Assembly (NCBI GenBank): GCA_031082315.1
Contig: JAVHLC010000011.1
Coordinates: 35,117 to 99,116, forward strand
DNA: 64,000 nucleotides
DNA from: Thermodesulfobacteriota bacterium
Lineage (GTDB): Bacteria > Desulfobacterota > QYQD01
Direction of reading: 5' to 3'
Below are positions 26,412 through 28,744 of the stretch, piece by piece. A model generated the notes under the pieces. The model was not told the origin of the DNA. It worked only from the letters and a program-made list of their open reading frames with translations, and made no database searches. Each line of letters starts with the position of its first letter. Position 1 is the stretch's first letter. The translations under genes were made by a program, and so were the position numbers.

Positions 26412-26976
26412 ATATAACGTTCATGCAGAACGTGCTTGACGAATTGTGAATAAGCAGGACATCCGCTTGGGGCGGACGGCAGTTACTCTATCTCCCGAAC
26501 CCCGGGGCTTCGTCATGTTATGCTGACTTGCCCGGATAGTTGGCTTTGTACGCCATTTACTCGCCACGTCCTGTGGCTCGCCCTTCGGGCCAGCAAATCT
26601 GTTCAAAATTGTTTATCCTGACGATTTTGTCTGTTCCCCGGATCAAGTCCGGGGCAGGCTTGACTCATAGCTTTGCAGTCCGGGTTACCGCTCCCTGCGG
26701 TCGCTCTCGCCGTTGGCTCGTGGTCTCCGCTACGCTCTGGACCCTTCAGACGGTCTCTCACGATTCCGCCCTTGCCTTCGGCTAGTACTTCTGCTAACGT
26801 ATCACTAAGTAGGCAGGGTTCACCCTGTTAAATTCCCCCCAGGGAACCCTATTTAACAGGGTAAACGTACAGGGGGGACTTACACCCCATAAGCTCACGC
26901 CCATGCCGGGCGTACACAATTCGTTCAAGAGGGACGCGGCATAAGGCCGCCGCGCCCCTTAGCTTTGGAGTTCGGG
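26412..26976 (+). other. attC-type site A, interrupted by an intron-like element
   Basis: Without 26419-26917 it reads ATATAAC-AATTC-GTTCAAG-AGGGACGCGGC-ATAAGG-CCGCCGCGCCCC-TTAGCTTTGGA-GTTCGGG (66 nt). The left half matches the classical 59-be pattern AAC-AATTC-GTTCAAG as I recall it. Confidence 0.7.
26419..26917 (-). mobile_element. ORF-less group II (class C-like) intron-like RNA, copy A
   Basis: Minus strand starts GUGUACGCCCGGCAUGGGCGUGAGCUUAUGGGGUGUAAGUCCCC and ends ...CAUGAAC (AY). It shares GCAGAAGUA, CUGAAGG, GAGUAAAUG and AAGUCAGCA blocks, in order, with the O. iheyensis IIC intron as I recall it. No RT ORF. Confidence 0.6.
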
Positions 26977-26987
26977 CCTAAAAGAAA

Positions 26988-27644
26988 ATGGACTTTTTCG
27001 ATCCTAAGTTAACATTTGATCCGCAGAAACCGTTCTATGGGCTGGTTGTGGCTTACGTTGCTCAGGTACATGGCCTCCTAGATTTGGTAAGCCGAGGGCT
27101 TCGAGAGGAATGGGAAAAGCTTAGAGGTAGACACCAAAACAGTCGGCTGTCCTCACTTGAAATGGAGAAAATGCTCAGTGACGGAATCAGGGAGGGATAC
27201 AGGGATCACATACAAGCGGTACTGCGCTCACAATCGGCACCGATTATCGGTGTCCAAAGGTTGGTCTCACGTTTGCGAGAAGGAGTAAAAGTAGATACAG
27301 TGCGTTTAGCAAATGAAATATTTTCGAAGCATCAATATCCGGTTGAAACCTATAACAAAATGACTGCGGGAGCCTTGCTAATTGTGTCTTGGGAAGTTAC
27401 AAAGTCCGACCATAGCCAAGATCCACTCTGGGAGTTCCACCGTCATTGCAGAAACGCTGCTGCTCATAATGGGAATTTCAACTTCCAGCACGGAGAGCCA
27501 AAACGACCTGCAAAGTGGGGAGCGCTTGAAATCGTACTTACCCTACAAGACACGCCAATTTTCCCAAATTCCTCTGGCAGAGGCTTTATTGGTCCTGGTG
27601 ATGTTTTGTATCTGCTGGCTGACATTGAAGCAAAATTCTATTAA
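26988..27644 (+). CDS. Hypothetical protein with HEPN-type Rx4H motif (Abi-like)
   Basis: 218 aa. HRHCRNAAAHNGNF contains R-N-x3-H. It is a single-gene cassette. Confidence 0.5.
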   Translation: MDFFDPKLTFDPQKPFYGLVVAYVAQVHGLLDLVSRGLREEWEKLRGRHQNSRLSSLEMEKMLSDGIREGYRDHIQAVLRSQSAPIIGVQRLVSRLREGVKVDTVRLANEIFSKHQYPVETYNKMTAGALLIVSWEVTKSDHSQDPLWEFHRHCRNAAAHNGNFNFQHGEPKRPAKWGALEIVLTLQDTPIFPNSSGRGFIGPGDVLYLLADIEAKFY

Positions 27645-27646
27645 AG

Positions 27647-27778
27647 CCCGAACAAATCAATCCAGCCGGGCTGTGCTCTCGCGGAATAAAATCGTTCCCT
27701 CGCGCGCTGATTCGCGCGTCGGGAACAATCCGCTCGAGCAGACAGCCCAAGGGCCGCAGCTCAGATGGGCCGTTGGCT
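27647..27778 (+). other. attC-type site (long, 132 nt)
   Basis: Bounded by CCCGAAC and GTTGGCT. Arms GGGCTGTGCTCTCGCGGAAT and AATCCGCTCGAGCAGACAGCCC pair. Central hairpin GTTCCCTCGCGCG...CGCGCGTCGGGAAC. CCCGAAC is the exact reverse complement of the cassette start GTTCGGG. Confidence 0.7.
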
Positions 27779-27791
27779 GAGAGGGAAAAAG

Positions 27792-27884
27792 ATGGAACAG
27801 TATATCGGTTTGCTGATTTTCCTTGGACTTCTGGTCAGTTGCACATCCCCCGTGAACAAAAGGCGATCGGAGAAAGCAAGATGA
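27792..27884 (+). CDS. Possible 30-aa mini-lipoprotein ORF
   Basis: MEQYIGLLIFLGLLVSCTSPVNKRRSEKAR, with a lipobox-like LVSC. RBS GAGGG lies 6 nt upstream. ATGA overlap with the next ORF. Confidence 0.3.
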   Translation: MEQYIGLLIFLGLLVSCTSPVNKRRSEKAR

Positions 27885-28204
27885 ACGTACTTCAGATTCG
27901 TTGGCAACGTCTCGTGGACGAACGGGGCCAAACATGTGATCGCTGTGGCGCAACCGAAACAGCGATAGAGGATGGGTTCCAAAAGCTAAGGCGTTCCCTG
28001 AAGGAACTGGACATAGACGTCGTTCTCGAGAAAACAGCTCTCAATCCTTCTACGTTTTCCAAGGATCCGCTCCAGTCAAATCGTATCTGGATTGCCGGAA
28101 AGCCGATCGAGCAGTGGCTCTCGGCCACCACTGGCCAGAGCCGATGTTGCTCCACATGCGGAGATTCGGAATGCAGAACTGTCACGGTTGATGGCAATAC
28201 CTAA
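27881..28204 (+). CDS. DUF2703-like small Cys protein
   Basis: MNVLQIRWQRLVDERGQTCDRCGATE...CCSTCGDSECRT. Start chosen at MNVLQ rather than the longer tracked ORF. Confidence 0.65.
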   Translation: MNVLQIRWQRLVDERGQTCDRCGATETAIEDGFQKLRRSLKELDIDVVLEKTALNPSTFSKDPLQSNRIWIAGKPIEQWLSATTGQSRCCSTCGDSECRTVTVDGNT

Positions 28205-28210
28205 GGACTG

Positions 28211-28744
28211 GCGGGACGTTCATGCAGAACGTGCTTGACGAATTGTGAATAAGCAGGACATCCTCTTGAGGCGGACGGCAGTTACTCTATCTCCCGAACC
28301 CCGGAGCTTCGTCACGTTGTGCTGACTTGCCCGGAGACTGGGCCTGGTATGCCGTTTACTCGCCACGTCCTGTGGCTCGCCCTTCGGGCCAGCAAAGCTG
28401 TTCAAGATCGTTCATCCTGACGATTTTGTCTGTTCGTCGGCTCATAGCTTTGCGCTCCGGGTTACCGCTCCCTACGGTCGCTCTCGCCGTTGGCTCGTGG
28501 TCTCCGCTGCGCTTCGAACCCTTCGACGGTCTCTCACGATTCCGCCCTTGCCTTCGGCTGGTACTTCTGCTAACGTATCACTAACTAGGCAGGGTTCACC
28601 CTGTTAAATTCCCCCCAGGGAACCCTATTTAACAGGGTGAACGTACAGGGGGGACTTACACCCCTTAAGCTCACGCCCATGCCGGGCGTACACAACTGCG
28701 TTCACGCGACCTCGTGACCTCGGCGCGTGACCCACATGTTATTA
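28211..28744 (+). other. attC-type site B, interrupted by an intron-like element
   Basis: Without 28218-28693 it reads GCGGGAC-AACTGC-GTTCACGCG-ACCTCGTGACCTCGG-CGCGTGA-CCCACAT-GTTATTA. Confidence 0.6.
28218..28693 (-). mobile_element. ORF-less group II (class C-like) intron-like RNA, copy B
   Basis: About 90% identical to copy A with the same ends. Lacks one ~23-nt hairpin. Shows at least one compensatory U-A to C-G change in a small stem. Confidence 0.6.

Follow-up and report, generated by a model that had tools for sequence, protein, structure and literature searches.

Two related units in an island of cassette-like genes

The window analyzed here, a 64-kb stretch of DNA, contains a strain-specific 6.8-kb island of cassette-like genes (Table 1). 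Within it lie two repeat units, A and B, both on the minus strand and, in agreement with the original prediction, antisense to the cassette ORFs. The units (26417-26915/26917 and 28216-28691/28693) can be aligned over their full length and are identical at 447 of 476 aligned positions (∼94%; about 90% had been estimated initially). Similarity ends sharply at both sides, where the flanking sequences are unrelated; the repeat pair is real. Their boundaries are uncertain by 2 nt because of a 2-nt GT repeat at either end, so the coordinates first proposed are acceptable. A 25-nt motif from the 5′ end occurs exactly twice in the window (chance expectation 0), and the units had no match in the phage collection. 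Neither copy contains a reverse transcriptase reading frame, as had been stated before, and the 61-codon ORFs inside the units were judged noncoding because nine residues differ between the copies.

The differences between A and B are unevenly spread: 4 fall within 150 nt at the 5′ end, ∼22 within the 227 nt of the middle, and 3 within 99 nt at the 3′ end, with none in the last 43 nt. Pure neutral decay should have left a more even distribution, so this one counts against it; possible explanations are gene conversion or a constraint acting on the ends.

Table 1. Features of the island (positions in the window; a slash marks the intron junction here and in the text).
Feature	Position	Strand	Remarks
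Strain-specific 6.8-kb island with both units	24393..31228		absent from three related loci
Unit A	26417..26915	(-)	domain I + D5 remnant + 43-nt nonintronic tail
Tail of unit A	26417..26459	(-)	UCCUGCUUAUUC + ACAAUUCGUCAAGC + hairpin ACGUUC-UGCAU-GAACGU; nonintronic
Domain V remnant, unit A	26460..26479	(-)	CCGUCCGCCCCAAGCGGAUG; homology to D5 of L172 and L173
D1-homologous part, unit A	26480..26915	(-)	RF02001 match 26477-26558; alignments to relatives
P1out-like TTGCCT-N17-TAACGT, unit A	26772..26800	(+), antisense strand	points at 218-aa ORF (26988-27644)
attC-like site A, 5′ exon	26916..26978	(-), bottom strand	CCCGAAC ... GC-rich bulged hairpin ... CTTGAACGAATTGT/
Unoccupied attC-like site between units	27647..27779	(-)	long imperfect hairpin, z = -3.6
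Unit B, sister of unit A	28216..28691	(-)	without 22-23 nt found in A, L172 and L160
Tail of unit B	28216..28258	(-)	same as tail of A at 43/43 positions
Domain V remnant, unit B	28259..28278	(-)	2 positions differ from A
D1-homologous part, unit B	28279..28691	(-)	RF02001 match 28276-28357, 35.1 bits
P1out-like motif, unit B	28548..28576	(+)	points at 143-aa ORF (28786-29217)
attC-like site B, 5′ exon	28692..28745	(-), bottom strand	ATAAC ... imperfect bulged hairpin ... GTGAACGCAGTTGT/
Orphan intron 3′ end, same sublineage	31128..31228	(-)	model R1 match 31126-31201, 72.6 bits, E 1e-16

Group II identity and insertion at attC-like sites

The proposed likeness to group II introns was confirmed by a covariance model, for a part of domain I (D1). 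Both copies matched the Rfam model RF02001 (group-II-D1D4-3) with 35.1 (B) and 30.5 (A) bits at a gathering score of 32, and the match was restricted to positions 59-145 of the 170-position model; with the same model, intact relatives reach 100-140 bits. In blastn searches, the 5′ 44 nt together with 12 nt of the 5′ exon matched annotated IIC-attC introns in 331 plasmids, and the 5′ pattern GTACGCCCGGCATGGGCGTGA was matched in more than 120 genome loci. Taken together, the 5′ end, the RF02001 match and the blastn matches uphold the assignment to the class C lineage and narrow it to the IIC-attC sublineage, which is represented by S.ma.I2, E.c.I7, Kl.pn.I1 and relatives (Quiroga 2008; Leon & Roy 2009-2010; cited in PMC3001079, PMC7923331). 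A Klebsiella IncN plasmid has such an intron in its blaGES-24 attC, and the 5′ 44 nt of the units share 89-91% identity with it. One of the sequence blocks that had been put in line with the Oceanobacillus iheyensis intron, AAGUCAGCA, was misplaced: it was assigned to D3, and the covariance model puts it into the D1 hairpin that bears EBS1.

Both units begin at the canonical IIC-attC junction, TTGT/GTACGCCC, directly 3′ of an attC-like bottom-strand hairpin; the 5′ end of unit A is GTACGCCCGG, with TTGT directly before it. The predicted position, 3′ of the hairpin and inside the R″ box, holds, but the junction is not TT/GT: comparison with more than 100 relatives places it at TTGT/GTACG, in agreement with the published target TTGT/T (PMC7923331). 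The +1 T of this target is present at unit A and replaced by C at unit B.

Three candidate attC hairpins in the window were inspected manually for attC features (R″/R′ boxes RYYYAAC/GTTRRRY, bulged bases) and by DNA folding, and all three display an imperfect inverted repeat, R″/R′ boxes, bulged bases and a location between promoterless ORFs of one strand; a tblastn search for IntI over the 64-kb window detected no homologue. On the top strand of the site at unit A, an R′ box (GTTCGGG) precedes the next ORF by 10 nt, and the 3′ arm of the site is identical to that of the blaGES attC of a class 1 integron. Removal of unit A in silico leaves GAATTGT/TATAT, a passable R″ box, and the unoccupied site between the units ends with an intact target, GATTTGT/TCGGG. 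Unit B had likewise been placed between the R″ and L″ arms of an attC. This did not hold, as its 3′ side adjoins a truncated DUF2703 gene and not an R″ attC half. The gene is shorter here than in the same-species locus L173, which points to a rearrangement breakpoint instead of a clean insertion.

Domain content of the units

Two lineage-specific insertions, one of them a 45-nt hairpin (26818-26862), are found in the D1 of unit A along with the EBS1 hairpin (26512-26527), which in unit B is located at 28311-28326 with ACAA in the loop; EBS1 of the units is kept as ACAA or AUAA. In D1, two more base pairs are broken in unit A than in B, and there are no compensating changes. Beyond D1, little of the intron is left. 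Ten full-length relatives matched the units in blastn only up to intron position ∼275, and the closing strand of D1, TTATCCGGGG, as well as all downstream intron sequence, is absent from the units in the multiple alignment. RF01998 (D2-D3) gave no match in the units at E ≤ 10, compared with 54-78 bits for intact relatives. Nor was a D6 with bulged A and the 3′ end ...CCCGAU found in the units, the tail being dissimilar to D6; the introns of relatives end with ...CUACCCGAU/U.

The caveat attached to the original prediction, that no canonical domain V could be recognized, proved justified. Neither RF00029 (D5-D6; E ≤ 10) nor a family-specific D5-D6 covariance model, R1, run with filters off, matched a domain V in either unit. 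The irregular 41-nt hairpin offered in its place contains a part, UCCGCC...GCGGAUG, whose homologues are the D5 upper stem and bulge in L172 and L173; as a whole, it is not D5 and was rejected as such because it is a chimaera of the D1 motif GAGUAACUG (5′ strand), the D5 upper stem, and a foreign tail (3′ strand). Of D5, unit A retains just the bulge and the upper stem with its loop, and neither strand of the catalytic lower helix is left. One of the two changes in the remnant of unit B (GCGG to GAGG) breaks the remaining stem.

These results bear directly on whether the units are complete ORF-less introns with an odd domain V, able to splice or move if an intron-encoded protein (IEP) were supplied in trans. 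Their 5′ end and D1 are typical of the lineage, complete ORF-less mini-introns of ∼420-850 nt are common in the sublineage, and the hairpin stands at the place expected for D5, with G-C, A-U and G.U closing pairs. However, its 5′ strand is the conserved D1 motif according to both the covariance model and the alignments, its 3′ strand is foreign, and its upper stem is broken in unit B (z = 0.2). More than an IEP is missing: the 3′ closing strand of D1, D2, D3, D4 and D6 are gone from the units, and D5 is without either strand of its catalytic lower helix. Complete introns are thus a reading that is already largely refuted and hardly credible. What was found is the outcome that the original prediction had itself named as contrary to it, a decayed fragment with no domain V equivalent. 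Judged by sequence, the units would be unable to splice or retrohome on their own, as they lack the D5 catalytic helix, D6, D2, D3 and an IEP.

ORF-less class IIC introns including HYERs (Liu et al. 2024, as described in bioRxiv 10.1101/2024.08.31.610620) resemble the units in being IIC-derived, devoid of an ORF and present in more than one copy. HYER activity requires an intact catalytic core, which the units have lost.

The 43-nt tail

The 3′ 43 nt that had been counted as intron are foreign sequence with no homologue in the fetched loci. Within this tail, ACAAUUCGUCAAGC is the reverse complement of an attC arm, GCTTGA(A)CGAATTGT. A 23-mer spanning the tail junction had no match in metagenome_contigs, blastn-short of the tail against 172 loci and the window returned chance-level words only, and the tail is not present in L173-L176. 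Several origins were considered and rejected. An inverted piece of the lost 3′ end of the DUF2703 gene is not supported, since its local alignment score was reached by 297 of 2,000 shuffles. Inspection by hand indicated that L and R boxes do not pair properly, whether the tail is read as a full small attC, in one orientation or the other, or the whole unit as a cassette in inverted orientation. Two short matches were judged to be at chance level: one of 12 nt between the tail complement and J2/3 of L002, the other of 9 nt (TGCTTATTC) between the tail and the 3′ exon of the orphan D5-D6 described below.

A rival reading is that of a nonautonomous mobile element: intron machinery supplied in trans would copy D1 plus tail from one attC site to another, guided by EBS1 and the 14-nt tail segment that is antisense to the attC arm. 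Sister copies occupy different attC sites, have their 5′ junctions at the family target and share the 3′ end; the ends are better conserved than the middle, EBS1 is kept, the tail is complementary to CTTGA(A)CGAATTGT, and the form with the D1-D5 deletion occurs in at least one other environment (L172). Against this, reverse splicing requires D5 and the intron 3′ end, both of which the units lack; only two copies are known, the tail junction 23-mer has no match in metagenome_contigs, and the fetched loci contain no homologue of the tail; unit B disrupts a gene and has the nonstandard +1 nucleotide; and no helper IEP is present in the window (tblastn with the IEP of L002 over the 64 kb yielded no homologue, best E 1.4). 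Such an element is considered highly unlikely.

Relatives and the abundance of stubs

L172, a metagenomic relative with 88% identity over 298 nt, has the D1-D5 deletion junction in common with the units. Beyond this junction, the 3′ strand of D5 is still in place in L172, as is D6, and its 3′ end is normal (...CCCGAT/T); its D5-D6 scores 46 bits with model R1. Its lower D5 helix amounts to three base pairs at most, by folding and by direct reading, which suggests that the ancestor common to L172 and the units was already inactive. The complete mini-introns of the sublineage mentioned above, which still have D5-D6, are also close to the units.

IIC-attC 5′ ends were surveyed in 100 loci from species-representative genomes. 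At 21 of these 5′ ends, no D5-D6 follows despite at least 2.2 kb of downstream sequence, and in all 21 stubs the intron homology stops within 23-533 nt. Short D1 stubs and ORF-less mini-introns outnumber full-length copies in these loci, and D1-only stubs of the kind of units A and B are the commonest form of the lineage among them. Orphan D5-D6 pieces were found 16 times in the same set.

Truncated group II fragments have been described from integrons and CALINs (UHB.F1, H.ha.F1 and H.ha.F2; PMC7923331). Like the units, these are nonfunctional fragments within cassette arrays, some of them without a nearby integrase gene (PMC7923331). In contrast to the units, they are 5′-truncated and keep the 3′ end, as incomplete reverse transcription predicts (PMC7923331); the units are 3′-truncated D1 stubs that were duplicated with a common foreign tail.

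An orphan intron 3′ end at the edge of the island

On its right, the 6.8-kb island is bounded by the 3′ end of another intron of the same sublineage, located 2.4 kb from the units on the same strand. D6 and a canonical D5 with CGC triad and UG bulge are preserved in it, together with ∼30 nt that precede D5; it ends with ...CGCGAU/UAUUGG and matches positions ∼1785-1961 of full-length introns in blastn; the basal helix of its D6 has one mismatch. Rfam searches over the whole 64 kb (E ≤ 0.5) found no D5, and this D5-D6 was seen by model R1 only. L173 has an orthologous remnant but no D1 unit in its neighbourhood. There, this remnant adjoins a different cassette, and past a common 5′ part the D5-D6 sequences of the two loci differ, as is expected from recombination between intron copies.

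D1 plus D5 is a known minimal catalytic combination in vitro. The D1 RNAs of A and B could accordingly be imagined to assemble in trans with the orphan D5-D6 RNA (31128-31200) into a naturally fragmented ribozyme, given that the three pieces lie within 5 kb, all on the minus strand, and that the orphan D5 retains the CGC triad and the 2-nt bulge. However, truncation of the last intron at the island edge accounts for the orphan piece, its orthologue lacks a D1 unit in the vicinity, its D6 basal helix is mismatched, helix-breaking changes accumulate in the D1 units, and such pieces are common elsewhere. A split ribozyme is therefore extremely improbable.

The model of Leon & Roy 2009 for intron-mediated formation and joining of cassettes (summarized in PMC7923331, PMC3001079) has a counterpart here, in that the island stops within an intron remnant whose neighbouring cassette differs between this strain and L173. 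An inverted attC arm such as that of the tail is not predicted by the model, and recombination would be deduced here from its end products.

A P1out-like motif on the antisense strand

The P1out-like motifs of both units occupy a homologous D1 position, which is that of the published outward promoter P1out. P1out is defined by TTGCC[A/C/T], a spacer of 16-18 nt and a −10 hexamer on the antisense strand of D1, facing exon 1. Published variants of this promoter include TTGCCT-17-TACGCT and TTGCCT-17-TCACAT (PMC3001079, Table 3), and in E. coli, reporter expression was obtained with P1out fragments of three introns (PMC3001079). A consensus (sigma-70-type) promoter scan of the plus strand of the units called no promoter, the motif remaining below threshold, and its −10 hexamer matches the consensus at three of six positions.

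D1 stubs might thus have been exapted as promoter modules, kept because an antisense-strand P1out transcribes the next cassette without an integron Pc; this would be compatible with the units being dead as ribozymes. The conserved placement of TTGCCT-N17-TAACGT in A and B, its aim at the 218-aa and 143-aa ORFs, its likeness to published P1out variants, the reporter activity of P1out fragments (PMC3001079), and the fact that the L176 stub ends 12 nt past the −35 element speak for this notion. Opposed to it are the poor −10 element and the silent scan. In addition, the −35 element is the complement of a conserved D1 motif (GGCAAGGG) and would be present anyway, and 5 of the 21 stubs of other genomes are shorter than 105 nt and hence without the P1out site. 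On balance, retention as promoter modules is unlikely.

Proposed history of the units

Both units are probably relics, catalytically dead, that a group II intron of the IIC-attC sublineage left behind. They share with IIC-attC introns the D1 homology, the TTGT/ site on the attC bottom strand, the antisense orientation, and a P1out-like motif at the same place; they differ in lacking an IEP, D2-D4, a functional D5 and D6, and in having two lineage-specific D1 insertions and a foreign tail. In the history proposed here, an internal deletion in an ORF-less mini-intron of the sublineage would have joined D1, after GUAAAUG, to the middle of the D5 5′ strand and thereby ruined the catalytic helix. 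By a second rearrangement, in the lineage of the window, the 3′ strand of D5 and D6 would have been swapped for the tail, with a breakpoint that coincides exactly with the nucleotide facing the point at which introns insert into an attC arm. The rearranged unit was presumably then copied once, each copy having diverged by ∼4% since, and the units may persist as passive insertions in an attC cluster without an integrase gene in the window, a cluster that appears to have been reshuffled around intron copies. The sole plausible residual activity may be transcriptional, either as a block to read-through or by the P1out-like promoter firing into the next cassette.

Some observations sit uneasily with dead relics. 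Sister copies in two attC sites, with precise TTGT/ 5′ junctions and an identical 3′ end, call for a copying mechanism, and clean insertion of the whole unit into attC may be an alternative account of them. Moreover, the P1out-like motif is kept in both copies, an intact-looking D5-D6 lies close by, and the analysis spans 64 kb of the genome. That the unit is a SINE-like nonautonomous derivative copied in trans, with the 14-nt tail segment as attC guide, or else that the D1 units and the orphan D5-D6 constitute a split ribozyme, is nevertheless very unlikely even when both are considered jointly.

As relics, the units are two decayed additions to a lineage already known from integron attC sites. 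A well-preserved D5-D6 that was easy to find with the lineage-specific model escaped the curated Rfam D5-D6 model. The island, which ends inside an intron remnant that adjoins different cassettes in two strains, fits the old proposal that introns help in joining genes and attC sites. If it is the outward promoter for which stubs are retained, arrays without an integron promoter would have in them a source of cassette expression.

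Structure of the paired repeat

The two minus-strand copies (units A and B; see the table) could be aligned from end to end, 447 of 476 aligned positions being identical, and their likeness stopped abruptly on either side, which confirms the repeat pair of the original prediction. The dinucleotide GT is present at both unit ends, so that the boundaries can be shifted by 2 nt; this explains the slightly different coordinates initially assigned. The 25-nt motif at the 5′ end occurs exactly twice in the window (0 expected by chance). A segment of 22–23 nt present in unit A is missing from unit B; because two relatives (L172, a metagenomic locus, and L160) also carry it, it has been lost by unit B. 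Both units have 38 derived differences from L172 in common, and private changes are similar in number (12 in A, 11 in B), which makes them sisters of comparable age. The differences between them are unevenly placed (4 in 150 nt, ∼22 in 227, 3 in 99, and none in the 43-nt 3′ tail), which counts against simple neutral decay; gene conversion or constraint on the unit ends could be the explanation.

Features of the intron-derived locus (window coordinates)
Feature	Position	Strand	Remarks
Unit A	26417–26915	minus	end-to-end alignment with unit B
Unit B	28216–28691	minus	end-to-end alignment with unit A
RF02001 match, unit A	26477–26558		30.5 bits (gathering score 32)
RF02001 match, unit B	28276–28357		35.1 bits (gathering score 32)
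First D1 insertion, unit A	26818–26862		45-nt hairpin
Third, longer imperfect hairpin	27647–27779		unoccupied, attC-like; between units; z = −3.6
Orphan D5-D6 (R1 match)	31126–31201	minus	R1 72.6 bits, E 1e-16
Orphan intron 3′ end	31128–31228	minus	D5-D6 + ∼30 nt upstream intron sequence; well preserved, same intron sublineage
Strain-specific island	24393–31228		6.8 kb; all cassette-like genes, both units, catalase gene; absent from L174, L175, L176

Affiliation and genomic setting

RF02001 (group-II-D1D4-3) was the one Rfam family matching the units, and it covered model positions 59–145 of 170 only. When plasmids were searched by blastn, 331 records matched a stretch made up of the unit's first 44 nt and the 12 nt upstream of it. 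The record inspected as an example was a class 1 integron (in the order intI1, blaGES-24, an antisense “group II intron reverse transcriptase/maturase,” qacEdelta1-sul1), the intron of which gave full Rfam matches (D1D4-3, 135 bits; D1D4-1, 61 bits; Intron_gpII, 49 bits). Its exon–intron border, read from both junctions against the uninterrupted attC, is ...GAATTGT|GTACGCCC...CCCGAT|TAGAC, in agreement with the insertion site published for introns of the attC-targeting class C lineage (IIC-attC), TTGT/T inside R′′ (PMC7923331). With a degenerate 5′-end pattern, >120 loci were found among the matches listed for species-representative genomes; in those read, the motif comes after an imperfect hairpin and is preceded by TTGT or a close variant. 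The partial RF02001 match and the plasmid introns bear out the predicted assignment to group II, IIC-attC.

The ORFs around the units are all on the plus strand, small, and functionally unrelated (trypsin-like, two without Pfam match, DUF2703, nucleoside deoxyribosyltransferase-like, catalase). On the minus strand, each unit is preceded by a bulged hairpin with AAC ... GTT-type boxes at its limits; at site A, the attC-like hairpin next to unit A, the R′ box GTTCGGG (plus strand) is 10 nt ahead of the next start codon. The antisense placement beside attC-like hairpins was, in this respect, correctly predicted. At the end of the third hairpin, the target is intact: GATTTGT|TCGGG (TTGT|T). Because tblastn gave no match for IntI within 64 kb, the locus amounts at most to a group of attC sites without an integrase gene within that distance, the attC calls being informal.

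Loss of intron domains

In an alignment with full-length relatives and with complete ORF-less ones, the units track these from the 5′ end across D1 up to GGGAGAUAGAGUAACUG, with two insertions in the D1 part: a hairpin (see the table) and a larger block common to a sublineage recovered from metagenomes (50 loci). Beyond GUAACUG, the sequence of the relatives runs on through the D1 closing strand (UUAUCCGGGG), D2, D3, D4, and D5-D6, and that of the units does not. Ten full-length introns matched the units by blastn up to intron position ∼275 only, and neither RF01998 (D2-D3) nor RF00029 (D5-D6) matched at E ≤ 10. R1, a D5-D6 covariance model built here from eight relatives (family members score 60–101 bits), detected no D5-D6 in either unit with filters off. 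The notion of complete ORF-less introns therefore had to be abandoned.

Over 298 nt, second insertion included, L172 and the units are 88% identical, and they have a D1|D5 fusion in common (L172, GAUAAAUGCCGCCCGCCCCAGGCGGAUG; units, GAGUAACUGCCGUCCGCCCCAAGCGGAUG). In L172, the fusion is followed by CGGGGCGCUGU, a normal D6, and ...CCCGAU|UAGC, a stretch scoring 46 bits with R1. When compared with L173, a same-species locus in which D5 is canonical (GCACCCCG-UCCGCC-UCA-GGCGGA-UG-CGGGGUG), CCG-UCCGCC...GCGGA-UG of the units proved to be the inner 5′ strand, upper stem, and bulge of D5. The irregular hairpin originally noted in place of domain V thus marks a true D5 remnant, but the outer part of its 5′ strand, which bears the catalytic triad, is gone, probably through the D1|D5 deletion, and its 3′ strand is additionally replaced. 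As the common fusion lacks the outer 5′ strand, and only three pairs of the lower D5 helix can form in L172, the units and L172 would descend from an already inactive derivative.

In the covariance-model alignment, D1 of unit A has two uncompensated noncanonical pairs more than that of unit B. What is left of the D5 stem is disrupted in unit B, the tail region of which folds no better than shuffled sequence, and the 61-codon ORFs within the units differ in nine residues. The units have neither the catalytic helix of D5 nor D6 nor D2-D3, and no intron-encoded protein (IEP) is within reach; from established group II biochemistry, they are predicted to be unable to splice or retrohome by themselves. 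Transcription is the one plausible residual role: the antisense strand of both units carries TTGCCT-N17-TAACGT where P1out, the experimentally supported outward promoter of IIC-attC introns (PMC3001079), is located, and this predicted motif points at the next cassette. As it is weak, overlaps conserved D1 sequence, and is missing from 5 of 21 stubs elsewhere, it is rather unlikely that the units act as outward promoters.

Tail and breakpoint

The tail common to both units reads UCCUGCUUAUUC-ACAAUUCGUCAAGC-ACGUUCUGCAUGAACGU. No homologue was found among 176 fetched loci, and a search of the metagenome collection with the junction 23-mer gave no match. In the middle block, an attC arm and its target, GCTTGA(A)CGAATTGT, are present as the reverse complement, beginning at the nucleotide exactly opposite the point of intron insertion; the final block forms a 6-bp hairpin, flagged by a terminator scan in unit A. 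The tail may be a rearrangement scar, in which a broken intron copy would have been joined to an attC cut or broken at the intron target. Several specific origins were tested and rejected. A perfect 10-nt inverted repeat, GTTCTGCATG/CATGCAGAAC (26356–26365 and 26422–26431), connects the end of a 293-aa ORF with the tail hairpin of unit A and is probably due to chance.

The far side of unit B adjoins a DUF2703 gene (27773–28204). Its likeness to the full-length gene of L173 (98% identical; L173 595–1116) stops at 28203, ∼35 codons short, and is followed by 12 unexplained nt; the 3′ side of unit B is thus a breakpoint and not the R′′ half of an attC.

A strain-specific island

The orphan intron 3′ end at the right edge of the island corresponds to the last 100–175 nt of full-length introns, and its D6 differs from that of L172 by one base. 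It went unreported by Rfam at every setting tried, including a search of a 351-nt slice with RF00029 at E ≤ 10. The neighboring gene encodes a GlnRS that matches one of an NCBI Thermodesulfobacteriota MAG with 100% identity. In three relatives (L174, L175, and L176; GlnRS 93–94% identical), the Lcl_C gene lies directly beside the counterpart of 31250–32497, which defines the island as strain-specific; it is bracketed by a ∼15-nt repeat (GGCYRCCCSCGGTCA). L173 (GlnRS 99%) has an orthologous intron remnant at the same chromosomal junction, where a full-length DUF2703 cassette is joined through its R′′ half (ATCTA|) directly to D6; the 5′ part of D5-D6 is common to L173 and the window, after which the two diverge. 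This would fit a reshuffling of cassettes by recombination between intron copies, as proposed for the IIC-attC lineage (PMC7923331 summary).

An intergenic multi-block repeat family (24380–24730, 8602–8753, 34778–34858, 41226–41377, and 45115–45400; 70–97% identity to reference copies, no Rfam match) contributes one copy as the left edge of the island, the first 15 nt of which resemble the chromosomal target motif. A second family (41571–41723, 56554–56696, and 62154–62303; also 4155–4179, 9864–9889, and 49429–49454) consists of GCTGA-type short-repeat runs followed by a hairpin (CCGGAAACnGTAGTTTCCGG).

Frequency of intron stubs

IIC-attC 5′ ends were surveyed in 100 loci (L003–L102) of species-representative genomes, and those with enough downstream sequence were kept. 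Full-length copies by size (9) were fewer than both copies of ORF-less size with D5-D6 (14; 560–1000 nt) and D1 stubs without D5-D6 within 2.2 kb (21); there were also ∼6 shorter internal deletions and 16 orphan D5-D6 pieces. Intron homology stopped within 23–533 nt (median ∼217) in all 21 stubs. The stub breakpoints are biased to the first ∼500 nt. Very short D1 stubs (∼45–130 nt; L176 1935–2058 and two L088 sites) lie behind attC-like hairpins, fused directly to unrelated DNA, and that of L176 ends 12 nt past a P1out-like −35 element. Within the metagenomic sublineage, complete ORF-less mini-introns (∼420–850 nt) are frequent.

With 21 cases against 14 and 9, D1 stubs are the commonest state of the IIC-attC lineage in these 100 loci, so that the units, as stubs, are nothing unusual; they differ from the others by the duplicated, shared foreign tail. 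Whereas the paired repeats and their lineage were recognized correctly from the outset, the units are, to judge from their sequence, not complete introns but the decayed relics, in duplicate, of an ORF-less IIC-attC mini-intron, each consisting of D1 and a D5 stump. The cassette island in which they lie has no integrase gene in the window.
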